The notes: generated by a model from the sequence alone, not told the origin. DNA of 64,000 bases from Coriobacteriia bacterium (GCA_034399355.1 JAXMMT010000032.1:3593-67592), one strand, 5' to 3'. Positions 11,571 to 17,374 are shown, counted from the first letter of the stretch. Numbers and translations are program-made.

Positions 11571-12694
11571 GTGACACGCGAAAGAGGGTTCGCCGCTCGC
11601 TCGTTTGGGTCACGTTCGCGTCCATCGTGGCGGTTGCGCTGGGCTCGATTCTGACGACCGGCCTGATTGCACGTGCGGCACTCTCGTCGGCGTTCACCAG
11701 CTACGTTGAGGGCCTCGAAGGCACTCCAATGAGTCCTGGCAGGGGCATGGGTCGCATGATGCTCGGCAGTGCCGAGCAGGCGTTTTTGAACGCGACAGAC
11801 CAGGGAATCATGGTTTCCGCCCTGATCGGCGTCGCAATCGCGGCGGTTGCTGCGATCCTACTGGCGCGTTTTCTCGCCCGGCCGGTGCGTCGGCTCACGG
11901 CGGGCGCACAAGCGTTGGCGGCGGGTAATCTCGAGCACCGGGTGACGCCGGAAGGCCCCGGTGAGCTGCAGGACCTTGCGGTGGCGTTCAATGAAATGGC
12001 CGGCACGCTCGAGGAGGGCGAGGGCCTACGCAGACGCCTGGTAAGTGACGTCGCTCACGAACTCCGTAATCCCATCGCAGCGCTGCGGGCGCAGGCTGAA
12101 GGCGTTGCCGAGGGCGTGTTGCCCCTGGACGATGCGCGGTTGGCTTCGATCGTCGACGACGTTGCACACTTGTCGCATCTCGTAGACGACCTCCAGGAGC
12201 TCTCGGTGGCGGAGGCTGGACGCTTACGCTATGACATCGCCACGCTCGACGTCTGTGAGCTCGTGCGGCGAGAGGTCGAGCGCGCGGAGGCACTGGTCGC
12301 AGATGGCGTGACGTTGTCGGCCGAGTGTCTCGCTGAACCGCTTCTTGCGCAGGCGGACGAAAGGCGGATCGCGCAGGTGTTGCGGAACCTTCTCGCCAAT
12401 GCGACGAGGCACACGACGTCCGGTGCTATCACGGTTTCCGTCTCGGCAGAGGATGAGCTTGTGCGCGTAGCAGTTGTGGACACCGGCGAGGGTATTCCTG
12501 AGGCGGACGTTCCCTACGTGTTCGAGCGTTTCTACCGCTCGGATGCGGCGAGGGCGGCGGGGACCGGCGGCAGCGGACTTGGACTCGCTATCTCGAGACG
12601 TATCGTGGATGACCATGGGGGACGGGTGTTCGCCGAGCGCAACGAGTATGGCGGCGCCACGGTCGGCTTCGAACTGCCGCGTCTCGGCACTTAG
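11567..12694 (+). CDS. sensor histidine kinase (2 TM, HAMP, HisKA, HATPase_c)
   Basis: H-box HELRNPIAAL, N-box LRNLLANATRHT, G-boxes DTGEGIP and GGSGLGLAI. ATGA overlap with the response regulator stop. Confidence 0.9.
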   Translation: MSDTRKRVRRSLVWVTFASIVAVALGSILTTGLIARAALSSAFTSYVEGLEGTPMSPGRGMGRMMLGSAEQAFLNATDQGIMVSALIGVAIAAVAAILLARFLARPVRRLTAGAQALAAGNLEHRVTPEGPGELQDLAVAFNEMAGTLEEGEGLRRRLVSDVAHELRNPIAALRAQAEGVAEGVLPLDDARLASIVDDVAHLSHLVDDLQELSVAEAGRLRYDIATLDVCELVRREVERAEALVADGVTLSAECLAEPLLAQADERRIAQVLRNLLANATRHTTSGAITVSVSAEDELVRVAVVDTGEGIPEADVPYVFERFYRSDAARAAGTGGSGLGLAISRRIVDDHGGRVFAERNEYGGATVGFELPRLGT

Positions 12695-13263
12695 TGCGTG
12701 CGGCGCTTATCGCGCATCTCTTCGTAGGCCGTCCGCACCGCCTCGAAGAACGGTTCCGCATTGGCGTCGATCACTTCATCAAAGGGGATACCGCGCTCGT
12801 CAAGCAGCGTGAGTGTGGCCGCGACCGCACGGGGCACTGCGGCCTCCACGGGAGCGGATAGCCCAACGGTCAGCTCCTGCGGACTCATGTCCTGCACCTG
12901 GATGCCCACGCACTCCGCGTCCAGCTCGATGCCGATAAGACGGGCGGAATTCAGCACATCCACGAAGCGGACGTCGTGTAGGCCGTGGAAGACCTGGTTG
13001 GGGCTGAAGTCTTCGGGTGACACTCTCACGACGGTGCCTGCCGGCTCGTCTGTTCCGTCGATGGCGTCGATGATGAGCAGGAAGTCCAGTCCTCGGAAGA
13101 GGCTTATCATTCCCAGGCCCATCGTGCCTGCGTCCACGAGTTCGGTTCCCTCGGCGAAGGCGTAGTGCTCGTCCAGTTTCTCAAGGACGCGGACGCCGAC
13201 ACCCTCGTCGAGCATGAGGGGATTGCCGATACCGAGCACGAGTACACGTTCAGGCGCGGACAT
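12691..13263 (-). CDS. hydrogenase maturation endopeptidase (HyaD/HybD family)
   Basis: VLVLGIGNPLMLDEGVG, LLIIDAID and FHGLHD are the metal-ligand motifs of the large-subunit C-terminal protease. Confidence 0.85.
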   Translation of the reverse strand: MSAPERVLVLGIGNPLMLDEGVGVRVLEKLDEHYAFAEGTELVDAGTMGLGMISLFRGLDFLLIIDAIDGTDEPAGTVVRVSPEDFSPNQVFHGLHDVRFVDVLNSARLIGIELDAECVGIQVQDMSPQELTVGLSAPVEAAVPRAVAATLTLLDERGIPFDEVIDANAEPFFEAVRTAYEEMRDKRRTH

Positions 13264-13357: not shown

Positions 13358-14005
13358 CTAGTGCTTGCTCCCCGGCAAGGTCTCCTTCCAAAGGAAGATG
13401 ATCTTGCTCGGAGCGAAGTTGTAGATGTTTGCCAGGTAGGCGTGGACCATCGTGAACAGGATGAACACCCACATACCAAAGTAGTGGATGATCCGCATGT
13501 TCATCGGACCGCCGACCAGGGTGGTACCAGCTGCGAGGAAACTTGCGTCCGCGAACGGAGCGTAAATCGCAAAGCCGGTATAGGCCTGGATGAACGTCAG
13601 CGGCACGGTCGCCAGATATGCGATCTTCTGGAGCGAACCATACTTGCCCGAGATGACGCCTTCCTTGCGGAAGAACAGGTAGTACTTGAGCGTCTCAACC
13701 AGCTGATGACGGTTCTCGGCCTGCGGTAGCCAGTTCTTGATGTCGGTGTCGACCTCGCGGGTCCCCAGCTGGTTCGCAGTCTTCACGAAGAAGGCGGCGA
13801 CGATGCGGAAGACGAGGTTGATGAGGATGACATACATCGCGACGAAGTGCATGCCGCGGGCTACACCCATAAACCCGGCAGAGAAGAACGGGAAGTGGAT
13901 GTAGAAGCCCGAGAACGCGAGCATCACCATACAGATCAGGTTGATCCAGTGGGTGATGACGAACACCAGCGGATGTGCCTCACGGTAGTGTGTGTGAGAA
14001 CCCAT
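13358..14005 (-). CDS. Ni/Fe-hydrogenase b-type cytochrome subunit
   Basis: 215 aa with 4 TM segments and His-containing helices (HPLVFVITHWINL). Its start abuts the corrected stop of the large subunit. Confidence 0.8.
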   Translation of the reverse strand: MGSHTHYREAHPLVFVITHWINLICMVMLAFSGFYIHFPFFSAGFMGVARGMHFVAMYVILINLVFRIVAAFFVKTANQLGTREVDTDIKNWLPQAENRHQLVETLKYYLFFRKEGVISGKYGSLQKIAYLATVPLTFIQAYTGFAIYAPFADASFLAAGTTLVGGPMNMRIIHYFGMWVFILFTMVHAYLANIYNFAPSKIIFLWKETLPGSKH

Positions 14006-15682
14006 CTACATCACCCCCATCGGAGACGACATCACAGTGCTCTCCTTGCCGGTCTTTGTGTCCACCACGTGGACAGCACAGCCGATTCAAGGATCGAAGC
14101 TGTGTGCGATGCGAAGCATCTCAAGCGGCCGCTCGACATCGAAGACCGGCGTGCCGACGAGTGCCTCCTCCATCGGGCCGCGGACACCAGCGGCGTCACG
14201 GGGCGCGATGTTCCAGGTGGTCGGTGCGACGACCTGGTAGCCCTTGATCTTGTTGTCCTTGACGTCGATCCAGTGACCAACAGAGCCACGAGGTGCTTCC
14301 CAGAGTCCTGAGCCGGCGCCGTCGAAGGTCTCGCGGGCCTTGAAGAACTCGGAGTCGCCACCCTTGATGCCTCCGACAAGCTCGCCGACCCACATGAGCG
14401 CGAGATCGGCGACGTAGGCTGCCTCAAGGTTGCGAGCGGCGACGCGGCCGAGCAGCGACACCAGGATCTCTGGCTTGCCGCCAACGCCGAGTGCCTCGAG
14501 TGTGAGGTCGATGAGGGCCTTGGGGGTGCGGATCGATCCTGCCGCCGCGTCGGGGACGAGGTTCTTGCCGCCTGCCTCATACACGTAGGCTGCGACCATG
14601 CGTGCAAGGGGTCCGACCTCGGCCGGCTTCTCCTTGCAGCGTGCAGCTTTGCCGTAGGAGTACTTGTCGTTCGTGTCGTACGCCGTGAACGCGACTTTCG
14701 TCTCGCCCTTGGAGGGGTTGAGTCCGTTACCGGAGTCGTACCATGAGTGGTCGACGTACTCGGTGACATCGTCGGGGCCGACTTCTTCGGCCTTGAGACC
14801 GCCGGTTACAAAACCACGGGGCAGGAAGCGGTTGTACGGATCCCGATCTGCAGCTTCGAAAACACCCCAGCTCAGGAAGTTACCACAGCCTCCGCCATAT
14901 CCTGCGGTATCCAGGATGAACGGTGCGATGGCGAGGGTGTCCGGGATGAGCGCAGTGTCGATGAACTCCTTCACTCTGATGAAGTTGAAGAGGATGTCAT
15001 CGAGCTTCTGCTCGGTAGGCACGAATGCTGTGCCGCCCGGAACCGACGTCATCGGGTGCGGGAACTTGCCGCCGATAACAGCCACGATCTCGTTGGCCAC
15101 AGCTTGCATCTCGAGAGCCTCGAGGTAGTGGGCCGTAGCGATGAGGTCGAGCTCCGGCGGAAGTACGTAGCCGGGGTGGTCCCAGTAGTGACCGCCCAAA
15201 AACGACAGCTGGCCGTTCTCGGCGAACGCGGTCAGGCGCTTGGCGATCGCGCCGAAGTCCGCAACACGGGTGCCGGCGGCCTGCGCAAGAGCGTAGGTGT
15301 CGGCGATGTTGGCGGAAAGGGCGTTTATCGGACTCACGTAGTCGAGAGCCGCCAGCGTGTAGAACCACAGGATGTGACTGTGCAGATACTGCGCGGCCTC
15401 AAGTAGGTTGCGGATGATACGGGCGTTGTTCGGGATGGCGATGCCGAGCGCGGCTTCGGTGGAAAGCGAAGACGCGTGGCTGTGCGAGATAGGACAGACA
15501 CCACAGATGCGCTGAGTGACATAGAATGCGTCCTCAGGCTGACGGTCAAGCATGACCGTCTCCATGCCGCGGTAGAGCGTTCCGGAGACCCAGGCGTCTT
15601 TGACGACACCATCCGTGACTTCACACTCGACGCGAAGGTGACCTTCGATTCGGGTGACAGGGTCGATGACTGCGCGTGCCAC
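14006..15682 (-). CDS. [NiFeSe] hydrogenase large subunit (selenocysteine at TGA 14087-14089; true stop TAG 14006-14008)
   Basis: N-terminal Ni-ligand motif RICGVCPISH. The track ORF ends at HSFDP followed by TGA. Read-through gives U-IGCAVH followed by a 20-aa tail and then TAG. A hairpin sits 11 nt after the UGA. Confidence 0.85.
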
Positions 15683-16896
15683 TATTTATCGCCTCCCTTC
15701 TTCGCGAGACGCTTACGGTCGTGCTTCTTCATGTCCTCCATGGGAGGCCCGTCGCCTACACGACCGGCGGCCTTCATGCCAAGACCGTGCGCTACGAGCG
15801 CTGCCGCGGCGACGCCGCCGACGACTGCGCCAACGGTGCCGGGCTGGACGTTGCCGAGCGCATCGCCCATCTGCATGTCGGAGAGCCTCTTGAAGAACGG
15901 AGCGTTGTTGTCGACCCAGTTCAGGCCGCCACAACCGATGCAGGGGCTGCCTGCTTCGACACACCAACTGGTCCGGCGGTTCCACCGCACGATTGGGCAG
16001 TTGGTGAACGTCTGCGGACCCTTGCAGCCCATTTTGTAGAGGCAATAACCCTTGGCCTCTTCAGCGCTGCCGAACTCGGTGACGAACTCACCGTTCTCAA
16101 AGTGGCCGCGGCGCGGGCAGTTGTCGTGAATGCTCTGGCCGAAGATACCCTTCGGCATGAGCAGATCGACATCGCCGTACTTGCGGTCGGTGTAAGAGCG
16201 GGTGATCCACTCGGTCTTCTCCACGAATGCGTTGACGTCGCGGTCGGCGACCAGCAGCAGCTGGACGACCATGGCCACGATCCACTCGGGGTTGACCGGG
16301 CAGCTGGGCAGGTTGACGACAGGGGTCTTGATCTTCTCGTGGTTCAACCACGCCTGGACGCCTGTGGCCTCGGCAGGGTTGGGGTAACCATAGACCCATC
16401 CGCCGTCCACCGCACATGATCCCACTGCGATGATAGCCGCAGCACCTGCAGCGGCCTCAGACAGGATTTCCGTGCCTTTCTTGCCGGCCACGAGCAGGGT
16501 GTTCCCATCCTGGCCGGTCATGACGGAGCCTTCGTAGATGACGATGTAGCCGCCCTTGGCGATCGTCTCTTCTATGTTCTTCTCCGCTTGCTCGCCCGCA
16601 GCAGCCATGATCGTCTCGAAGTAGTTGATCGAAAGGTAGTCGAGAACGATCGTCGCAACGTCGGGGGAGTCCACCTGTGCGATGGACTCGGTACAGCCGG
16701 TGCAAGATCCACCGTTCAGCCATAGAGCGGGCATCAGCTTGGGTGCCCCTTCGAGAGCTGCGGCAATCTGAGGTGCCATCGTTTCGGACAACCCGAGTGC
16801 CGCGGCAACGCTGCCGCAATACTTCAGGAAATCGCGACGGGTAACGCCGCGGACCGCGAGCAGGTCGTGCAGCGCGTTGTGCCCCTCATGCGCCAT
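15682..16896 (-). CDS. [NiFe]-type hydrogenase small subunit, Tat-exported, C-terminal membrane anchor
   Basis: Twin-arginine signal TRRDFLKYCGS, FeS Cys clusters and a C-terminal hydrophobic helix. Start set to ATG 16896, which has AGGAGG 9 nt upstream; the track start GTG 16905 is too close to the RBS. Confidence 0.9.
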   Translation of the reverse strand: MAHEGHNALHDLLAVRGVTRRDFLKYCGSVAAALGLSETMAPQIAAALEGAPKLMPALWLNGGSCTGCTESIAQVDSPDVATIVLDYLSINYFETIMAAAGEQAEKNIEETIAKGGYIVIYEGSVMTGQDGNTLLVAGKKGTEILSEAAAGAAAIIAVGSCAVDGGWVYGYPNPAEATGVQAWLNHEKIKTPVVNLPSCPVNPEWIVAMVVQLLLVADRDVNAFVEKTEWITRSYTDRKYGDVDLLMPKGIFGQSIHDNCPRRGHFENGEFVTEFGSAEEAKGYCLYKMGCKGPQTFTNCPIVRWNRRTSWCVEAGSPCIGCGGLNWVDNNAPFFKRLSDMQMGDALGNVQPGTVGAVVGGVAAAALVAHGLGMKAAGRVGDGPPMEDMKKHDRKRLAKKGGDK

Positions 16897-17374
16897 GCCA
16901 TACACCTCCTTGGTGTCATAACGGTACCTACAGTGCAGGTAAAGACTGTGGTCGCCGGGCCCTATTGCCCGACTATCGAGCGCGCATTCCTCCTTCCTGG
17001 ATCTCGATGTGATTCCTTATCGCCTTGAGCGGGATCATCACGACAGTAGACCGGCTCTGTGTCGCGGGCCCGAGGCTAACGTGGAGAGACGGGCGCGTGG
17101 TGACGCATTCGCGGCCCCGGGAACGGGTGATGACGGCGGGGAAGGAGGCAGGTCGCAGTGTCTGCGACAAATCTTGGGGCAGGCCTGCCCCAAGGGGAGT
17201 TCGAGTGTTGATCGCGCAAGACCCTGTGAGGGAGACGTAAGCAGCAACGCTCTCTCGGTACGCATGACCGGGTCGGTCATCGCGCTCCAGTTCCTCGTCT
17301 GCCAGGGTCGGCCATCGCCGACGTACTTCCACAGCCCTCTCGGCTCCTTATTGTGAACCCGCTAACAGAATGAT

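Follow-up and report, generated by a model that had tools for sequence, protein, structure and literature searches.

Does the TGA codon near the end of a hydrogenase large subunit gene from a Coriobacteriia bacterium terminate the protein, or is it read as selenocysteine (Sec)? The codon lies at positions 14087-14089 of a 64,000-nucleotide (nt) window (GCA_034399355.1, JAXMMT010000032.1:3593-67592), which is the whole stretch of DNA analysed here. All coordinates given without a contig name are positions in this window, and all features at such coordinates are on its minus strand. The genome assembly from which the window comes comprises 1.69 Mb in 48 contigs and is 98.8% complete. [NiFeSe] hydrogenases are valued for their high activity in producing H2 and their rapid recovery from O2, and to our knowledge no more than a handful have been characterised, every one from a sulfate reducer or a methanogen. 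We combined translation, comparative genomics, RNA structure analysis and phylogeny, and these indicate that the UGA at 14087-14089 is very probably a Sec codon. The gene is thus predicted to encode a [NiFeSe]-type large subunit, one that belongs to the Coriobacteria-type lineage of group 1 hydrogenases.

Read-through restores the C-terminal Ni-ligand motif

In the open reading frame (ORF) list made with genetic code table 11, the large subunit appears as a 531-aa ORF (14087..15682) that ends in ...RIAHSFDP-TGA. When TGA is translated as U over 14006-15700, the frame runs on as ...RIAHSFDP-U-IGCAVH-VVDTKTGKESTVMSSPMGVM and then meets a TAG at 14006-14008, so that the full gene (14006..15682) has 558 codons including its GTG start. 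The U occupies the first-Cys position of the C-terminal Ni-ligand motif DP(C/U)xxCxxH. The read-through product aligns end to end with solved [NiFe] large subunits (1YQ9, E 8e-123), and its U falls, column for column, on the first Cys of their ...DPCI(A/G)C(G/A)VH. The N-terminal Ni/Fe ligand motif RxCGxC is present as QRICGVCPISH, and the Pfam family PF00374 (NiFeSe_Hases) spans residues 38-538 (E 3e-152), a coverage that is obtained only if the TGA is read through. The original prediction, which had been made from the sequence alone, held that read-through restores this motif, and the alignment agrees. Its coordinates for FDP-TGA, for the TAG, for the following ATG at 14005 and for a hairpin at 14059-14075 were likewise all found correct on reading and translating the minus strand.

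Read-through also restores a C-terminal tail of 20 residues after the motif His (VVDTKTGKESTVMSSPMGVM, 14009..14068), presumably the substrate of a maturation endopeptidase. A gene for such an enzyme, of the HycI/HyaD family, is encoded at 12691..13263 (Pfam PF01750, E 3.5e-21), as had been proposed. The cytochrome b membrane subunit (13358..14005; Pfam Ni_hydr_CYTB; a 215-aa ORF in the table-11 list) starts with the ATG at 14005, immediately after the TAG of the read-through frame (TAGATG; junction GTGATGTAGATGGGT). A six-frame search of the assembly found only this one large-subunit match.

The TGA and the frame downstream are conserved

We used the read-through product in a six-frame search of 201 sampled Coriobacteriia genomes, and 139 of them contained a large-subunit match. 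Within the window's order, nearly every match listed contains a single in-frame TGA, and its alignment extends past this codon to query residues 553-558; the exceptions among the matches listed are one genome with a Cys copy (G027) and one partial hit. Three families (f20, f24 and f25) have copies without an in-frame stop, and no copy was found in a fourth (f22). At the position of the TGA, orthologues from Eggerthellaceae and Geobacteraceae carry TGC or TGT.

We then looked at what follows the TGA. All 48 Sec loci examined, 30 of them in the window's own family and 18 in others, share the sequence DP-TGA-(I/V/M)GC(A/G/Q)VH followed by a tail of about 20 residues, and in most of the 30 same-family loci the tail ends right at the cytochrome b start. 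Mean column entropy after the TGA is 0.40 at first, 0.30 at second and 0.99 at third codon positions, a pattern typical of translated sequence. The tail is kept in both Sec and Cys orthologues. For example, the Cys relative P0057 reads ...SFDPCVACAVHVVEPKTGKACTVLSSPMGVM, and its tail (...CAVHVVEPKTGKACTVLSSPMGVM) is the same as that of the window's read-through product. Among the 120 database proteins nearest to the window's product, which come mostly from Coriobacteriia metagenome-assembled genomes (MAGs), 116 'end' at ...SFDP with 516-541 residues. Close orthologues that truly terminate after FDP would have spoken for a genuine end at this point; this was not borne out, since the downstream frame is kept in every Sec locus examined. 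The single TGA and the conserved frame behind it, found across the order, instead support the earlier proposal that the large subunit is truncated by ORF calling.

One genome carrying a Sec copy also has a second, Cys-type (TGC) large subunit (L072, G093:C22:29030-29487), which retains a remnant of the hairpin stem described below (CGGUUC...GAACCG). This suggests a Sec-to-Cys conversion after duplication.

A SECIS-like hairpin follows the UGA

In bacteria, Sec codons are followed by a selenocysteine insertion sequence (bSECIS), for which the published consensus is a loop of 3-9 nt with a G in its first two positions, an upper stem of 4-16 bp, a distance of 16-37 nt from the UGA and a minimum free energy (MFE) of at most -7.5 (PMC13188914). 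The window's element has a 3-nt loop (GUG, G first), a 7-bp stem, a distance of 18 nt and an MFE of -16.5 kcal/mol, and lies within all of these ranges. Its upper hairpin, UGUCCAC-GUG-GUGGACA (14059..14075), occupies nt 15-31 counted from the U of the UGA, with 11 nt between the UGA and the stem and an apical loop that starts with GU. RNAfold places it in a 37-nt stem-loop (nt 5-41, 14049..14085; z -2.3), whose lower stem UCGG/CCGG is weakly supported; 6 of 200 shuffled sequences fold as well. Taken alone, the hairpin is thus only modestly better than chance, and its significance comes from the comparative evidence.

Across the relatives, two types of hairpin occur at the same place. Type 1, GUCCAC-GU(G/U)-GUGGAC, is found in the window's genus and some neighbours, and is register-shifted relative to type 2, (C/G)(G/C)GUUCA-CGUG(A/U)U-UGAAC(C/G)(G/C), which has a 7-bp stem and a 6-nt loop and is found in most other lineages. 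In 29 distinct sequences of type 2, the upper stem is 97% paired, with compensatory pairs at 14-33 (GC 13, CG 10, AU 2) and 15-32 (GC 21, CG 8). None of 500 shuffles reached this covariation score, the pairing collapses when the 3' arm is slid by one to three columns, and RNAalifold predicts the same upper stem. The compensatory changes alter amino acids (Ala/Gly with Pro/Arg). The lower stem is conserved and 88% paired in the relatives with zero double changes, and is unproven as a part of the element. Selection on the RNA can also be seen in codon use: the Sec genes fix GTT, CAC and GAA codons in genomes of more than 60% GC, and the Cys orthologues of Eggerthellaceae have GTG/GTC, CAT and GAG codons and no hairpin. 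The claim that the hairpin stands where a bacterial SECIS is expected is therefore upheld by its fit to the consensus and by its conservation with compensatory changes in relatives.

Like known bacterial SECIS elements (bSECISearch consensus model; Escherichia coli fdhF/fdnG type), the window's hairpin is a stem-loop that directly follows the UGA within the coding sequence, with a small apical loop that starts with G and then U. It differs in that its sequence is unrelated and that its loop, at 3 nt, has the smallest size the model allows; SelB is predicted to bind it. In E. coli fdhF, G23 and U24, counted from the U of the UGA, are the loop bases that are essential, and the window's GU is at nt 22-23. 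A genome-wide scan for TGA codons followed by a hairpin returned 399 candidates and was too unspecific, being informative only where long frames lie on both sides.

Selenocysteine machinery and other selenoproteins

Three selenoprotein genes beyond the hydrogenase were found in the window's genome. The first is selD (362 bits; contig C43 at 70760), which has its own TGA in TKAG-U-AAK. The other two code for formate dehydrogenase alpha subunits (fdhA) with TGA, one of about 980 aa (CARL-U-HSS) and one, of Tat type (twin-arginine translocation), of about 1100 aa (QARI-U-HSA); they sit on the plus strands of contigs C6 (~9869) and C36 (~31374). The loops of the fdhA hairpins (GGUCU and GGU) start at nt 22, where the loop of the hydrogenase hairpin also starts, and the selD and fdhA elements all have a loop G-U at nt 22-24 after the UGA. 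After selD comes selA (300 bits), which covers model positions 1-218, the N-terminal half, before it runs off the end of contig C43.

We surveyed the machinery in 21 genomes, namely the window's and 20 relatives. SelB scored above its curated cutoff in 19 of them and tRNA-Sec well above its cutoff in 16, with the tRNA gene directly 3' of selB where checked. G027, the sole relative with a Cys large subunit, has neither selB nor tRNA-Sec and so serves as a natural control. Among same-genus assemblies, no genuine tRNA-Sec was detected in G053 and G063, and selB is cut short in G063; the sel region seems hard to assemble.

How is the UGA read?

Several observations weigh against decoding as Sec. 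Neither selB nor tRNA-Sec was found in the 48-contig assembly with Rfam tRNA-Sec, ARAGORN, TIGR00475 or the SelB winged-helix domains. The window's own hairpin has an apical loop of only 3 nt and a modest z, and the type 1 form to which it belongs is nearly invariant (13 sequences), so that the covariation comes from the sister type 2. Finally, an Rfam scan of the TGA region gave zero family matches, Rfam having no matching bacterial SECIS model. As to the first point, a same-genus locus matches the final 708 nt of C43 at 87% and extends beyond them, by way of selA, into selB and a tRNA-SeC with anticodon tca, and we attribute the missing genes to the contig break inside selA and not to true absence. 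Moreover, of the tRNA genes that ARAGORN finds in the assembly (42), tRNA-Cys and tRNA-Gly(GCC) are missing along with tRNA-Sec, which points to an incomplete assembly. The original prediction had named the absence of selA, selB, selD and tRNA-Sec from the genome as a ground for giving it up; selD and selA are present, and selB and tRNA-Sec were not found in an assembly where the sel locus is cut by a contig end.

The alternative that survives best, itself very unlikely, is that the UGA is decoded by a standard tRNA, be it a suppressor or a near-cognate tRNA for Trp or Cys, with the hairpin promoting read-through; the enzyme would then be of the ordinary [NiFe] kind or have Trp as the residue in the ligand position. 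Hairpins are able to stimulate stop-codon read-through, and neither SelB nor the tRNA specific for Sec was found in the assembly. In the relatives, however, the TGA form goes together with selB and tRNA-Sec, and the sole relative without both has TGC. The hairpin matches SECIS geometry, with its loop G-U where the selD and fdhA elements have theirs, no UCA-anticodon tRNA other than that for Sec was seen, and the genome keeps selD, selA and three other Sec genes.

Slightly less probable still is that the TGA is a genuine stop, and the product a 531-residue protein without C-terminal Ni ligands, either a pseudogene or a non-catalytic remnant. This is what table 11 yields, the public gene calls of the orthologues all end at the same place, and the absence of selB and tRNA-Sec from the assembly would fit. 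However, the truncated protein would lose two of the four Ni/Fe-ligating cysteines. The genome has no other large-subunit match, and the genes for the small subunit and for the maturation protease are both intact. In dozens of species, the 81 nt behind the TGA keep the reading frame, show protein-like substitutions and run precisely up to the start of cytochrome b. A sequencing or assembly error hiding a TGC or TGT, conceivable in a draft, MAG-like assembly, has a negligible probability, as the same TGA recurs in well over 100 independent assemblies, closed genomes included, and only in the TGA genes are the neighbouring synonymous codons under constraint from the hairpin.

A reassignment of TGA throughout the genome was also considered and rejected. 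TGA is the commonest stop of long open frames there (590 of 1220), and the genetic code is therefore unchanged.

Proposed maturation of the hydrogenase

From the features described above we infer how Sec insertion, tail cleavage and the physiological role of the enzyme may be connected. During translation of the large subunit, the stem-loop right after the UGA, with its apical GU loop 18 nt downstream, would recruit SelB-GTP-Sec-tRNA(Sec). Sec would be inserted, and translation would run on through IGCAVH and the 20-residue tail to the TAG at 14006-14008, in front of the cytochrome b start. Standing in for the first Cys of the C-terminal DPCxxCxxH, Sec would become a terminal Ni ligand. After metal insertion, the HycI-type protease encoded downstream would cut off the tail behind the His. 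The product would be an H2-uptake hydrogenase that has a [NiFeSe] active site and is exported by the Tat system, anchored in the membrane and linked to cytochrome b.

The small subunit gene (15682..16905) fits this scheme. It was identified by Pfam NiFe_hyd_SSU_C and Oxidored_q6 matches, by translation and by motif comparison, and the large-subunit GTG start overlaps its TAG (TAGTG), a junction as tight as that with cytochrome b. Its translation has a Tat signal (RRDFLK) and a C-terminal transmembrane helix. The Tat signal, membrane helix and cytochrome b together correspond to the layout of a respiratory H2-uptake enzyme.

Relationship to known [NiFeSe] and group 1i hydrogenases

The original prediction called the enzyme a [NiFeSe] hydrogenase. 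This stands for the type of active-site chemistry, but not in the sense of the classical group 1a [NiFeSe] enzymes, which are periplasmic hydrogenases of sulfate reducers such as those of Desulfomicrobium baculatum (1CC1) and Desulfovibrio vulgaris Hildenborough (2WPN/5JSH). The classical enzymes and, by prediction, the window's have Sec at the first Cys in a DP-U-x-G-C-(A/G)-V-H motif and a cleavable C-terminal tail; both kinds show a UGA followed by a hairpin in the coding region and a Trp-Cys (W-C) pair in the small subunit. On alignment to the read-through product, however, solved [NiFeSe] chains scored lower (304-322 bits, in two stretches) than standard [NiFe] chains (399-414 bits, in one stretch). 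Classical [NiFeSe] large subunits have 490-505 residues with tails mostly of 14-18, as against about 555 residues in the window; the Sec and Cys enzymes of Coriobacteriia have about 545-595 with tails mostly of 20. The window's operon also differs in having cytochrome b and a small subunit with a C-terminal membrane helix, and dsrA was not found in the genome of its host. A single DNA pattern retrieves both the classical sulfate-reducer [NiFeSe] genes and the Coriobacteriia genes, and another scan retrieves the Cys-type Eggerthellaceae genes.

In a tree of 80 sequences, the window's product falls in a clade of 46 rows (100% support in the Shimodaira-Hasegawa-like approximate likelihood ratio test, SH-aLRT) together with Cys enzymes of Eggerthella, Slackia, Adlercreutzia and relatives. 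The classical [NiFeSe] clade, with the Hys-type large subunits of Desulfovibrionales and Desulfobacterales, is separate and strongly supported, with Cys enzymes of Desulfovibrionaceae and Geobacteraceae between the two. Membership in classical group 1a was accordingly rejected, on the separate clade, the length class and the lower scores against solved structures. In a 60-row tree, three changes between Sec and Cys are required, and a single change suffices in none of 200 bootstrap trees. With both Sec groups held as one clade, the approximately unbiased (AU) test gave p = 0.066; a single Sec clade thus appears disfavoured and is not formally rejected. Because the tree is unrooted, gains and losses of Sec are not separable in it, and all three changes could represent loss of Sec in favour of Cys.

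The product therefore most likely belongs to the Coriobacteria-type lineage of group 1, the HydDB class itself being taken from published family members. With the group 1i enzymes of Eggerthella, Slackia, Gordonibacter and Adlercreutzia it shares the operon (small and large subunits, cytochrome b, protease), the 20-residue tail and the W-C pair; they differ in having TGC or TGT and no SECIS hairpin. HydDB describes group 1i as 'Coriobacteria-type (putative)' and lists [NiFeSe] variants only for groups 1a, 3a and 3c (PMC5037454). In the archaeal [NiFeSe] enzymes Fru and Vhu of Methanococcus (groups 3a/3c), Sec replaces the same Ni-ligand Cys (UxxC, PMC13188914). These are cytoplasmic group 3 enzymes whose SECIS is in the 3' untranslated region, and group 3 chains reach only about 100 bits against the window's product.

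The W-C pair of the small subunit (SWCVEAGSPCIGC) provides a fourth Cys at the medial Fe-S cluster, in place of the Pro of standard group 1b enzymes; the [NiFe] small subunits of Desulfovibrio and Geobacter read W-P instead. W-C is common to the whole Coriobacteria-type clade, Sec or Cys, and to the classical [NiFeSe] enzymes. The Pro position is presumably the site, known from work on D. gigas and D. fructosovorans, where Cys turns the medial [3Fe-4S] cluster into [4Fe-4S]. The motif would thus predict an all-[4Fe-4S] electron relay in the window's small subunit. The fourth Cys was considered as a Sec-linked trait and rejected as such, since the Cys-type Eggerthellaceae enzymes carry it too.

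Further Sec large subunits were seen outside the classical clade. Some genomes of the window's order have a divergent second Sec paralogue (40-49% identity, tail of 15), and a Fidelibacterota MAG has a Sec large subunit that is sister to the Cys enzymes of Deferrimicrobium. Loci for further Sec group 1 large subunits are G103:C31, G163:C18, G079:C32, G107:C1 and G151:C4, L157, L176 and L191, and L205 and L296.

Selenium and H2 metabolism in Anaerosomatales

The nearest records to the window's product are from Coriobacteriia MAGs, among them 'Actinobacteria bacterium UBA2279' (91% identity). The GTDB family UBA2279 corresponds to Anaerosomataceae of the order Anaerosomatales (OPB41) (Khomyakova et al. 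2022, PMC9686372). Two of its cultured members, Anaerosoma tenue and Parvivirga hydrogeniphila, grow on H2, and both have genes for a hydrogenase of HydDB group 1i, made up of a large, a small and a cytochrome b subunit, along with a protease gene; selenocysteine goes unmentioned in their description, where the enzyme is listed as an ordinary group 1i [NiFe] hydrogenase (PMC9686372). A 2026 review places [NiFeSe] hydrogenases exclusively in sulfate reducers and methanogens (PMC13188914), and no prior report of Sec in Coriobacteriia hydrogenases was found in the literature searched, which covers few subscription journals.

Several large subunits recorded under 'Aeromicrobium sp.', 'uncultured Eubacteriales' and 'Slackia sp.' (L114, L120, L184, L189, L191, L208 and L212) are nested in the Anaerosomatales-type Sec clade. 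The taxonomic labels of these records are probably wrong.

We consider it likely that Sec at the Ni-ligand position extends beyond groups 1a, 3a and 3c, such that the cytochrome b-linked group 1i uptake hydrogenase of essentially the whole Anaerosomatales/OPB41 is a [NiFeSe] enzyme, Sec and Cys were exchanged at least three times within group 1, and further Sec clades exist in the second Coriobacteriia paralogue and in Fidelibacterota. This would add to the [NiFeSe] hydrogenases a large lineage that is neither sulfate-reducing nor methanogenic, with an architecture that differs from the known ones in its membrane anchor, its cytochrome b and, probably, a quinone acceptor. It also exposes a systematic annotation error: of the 120 database proteins closest to the window's product, 116 break off at the Sec codon, and the enzyme is listed as a shortened ordinary [NiFe] hydrogenase. 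The close Cys relatives in gut Eggerthellaceae would offer a natural comparison of Sec and Cys, in enzyme pairs within one subgroup. For the order that carries the enzyme, made up of uncultured and newly cultured Actinomycetota, the prediction is that H2-dependent growth of Anaerosoma and Parvivirga needs selenium. If so, the H2-driven growth of subsurface Actinomycetota of Anaerosomatales/OPB41 would be selenium-dependent.

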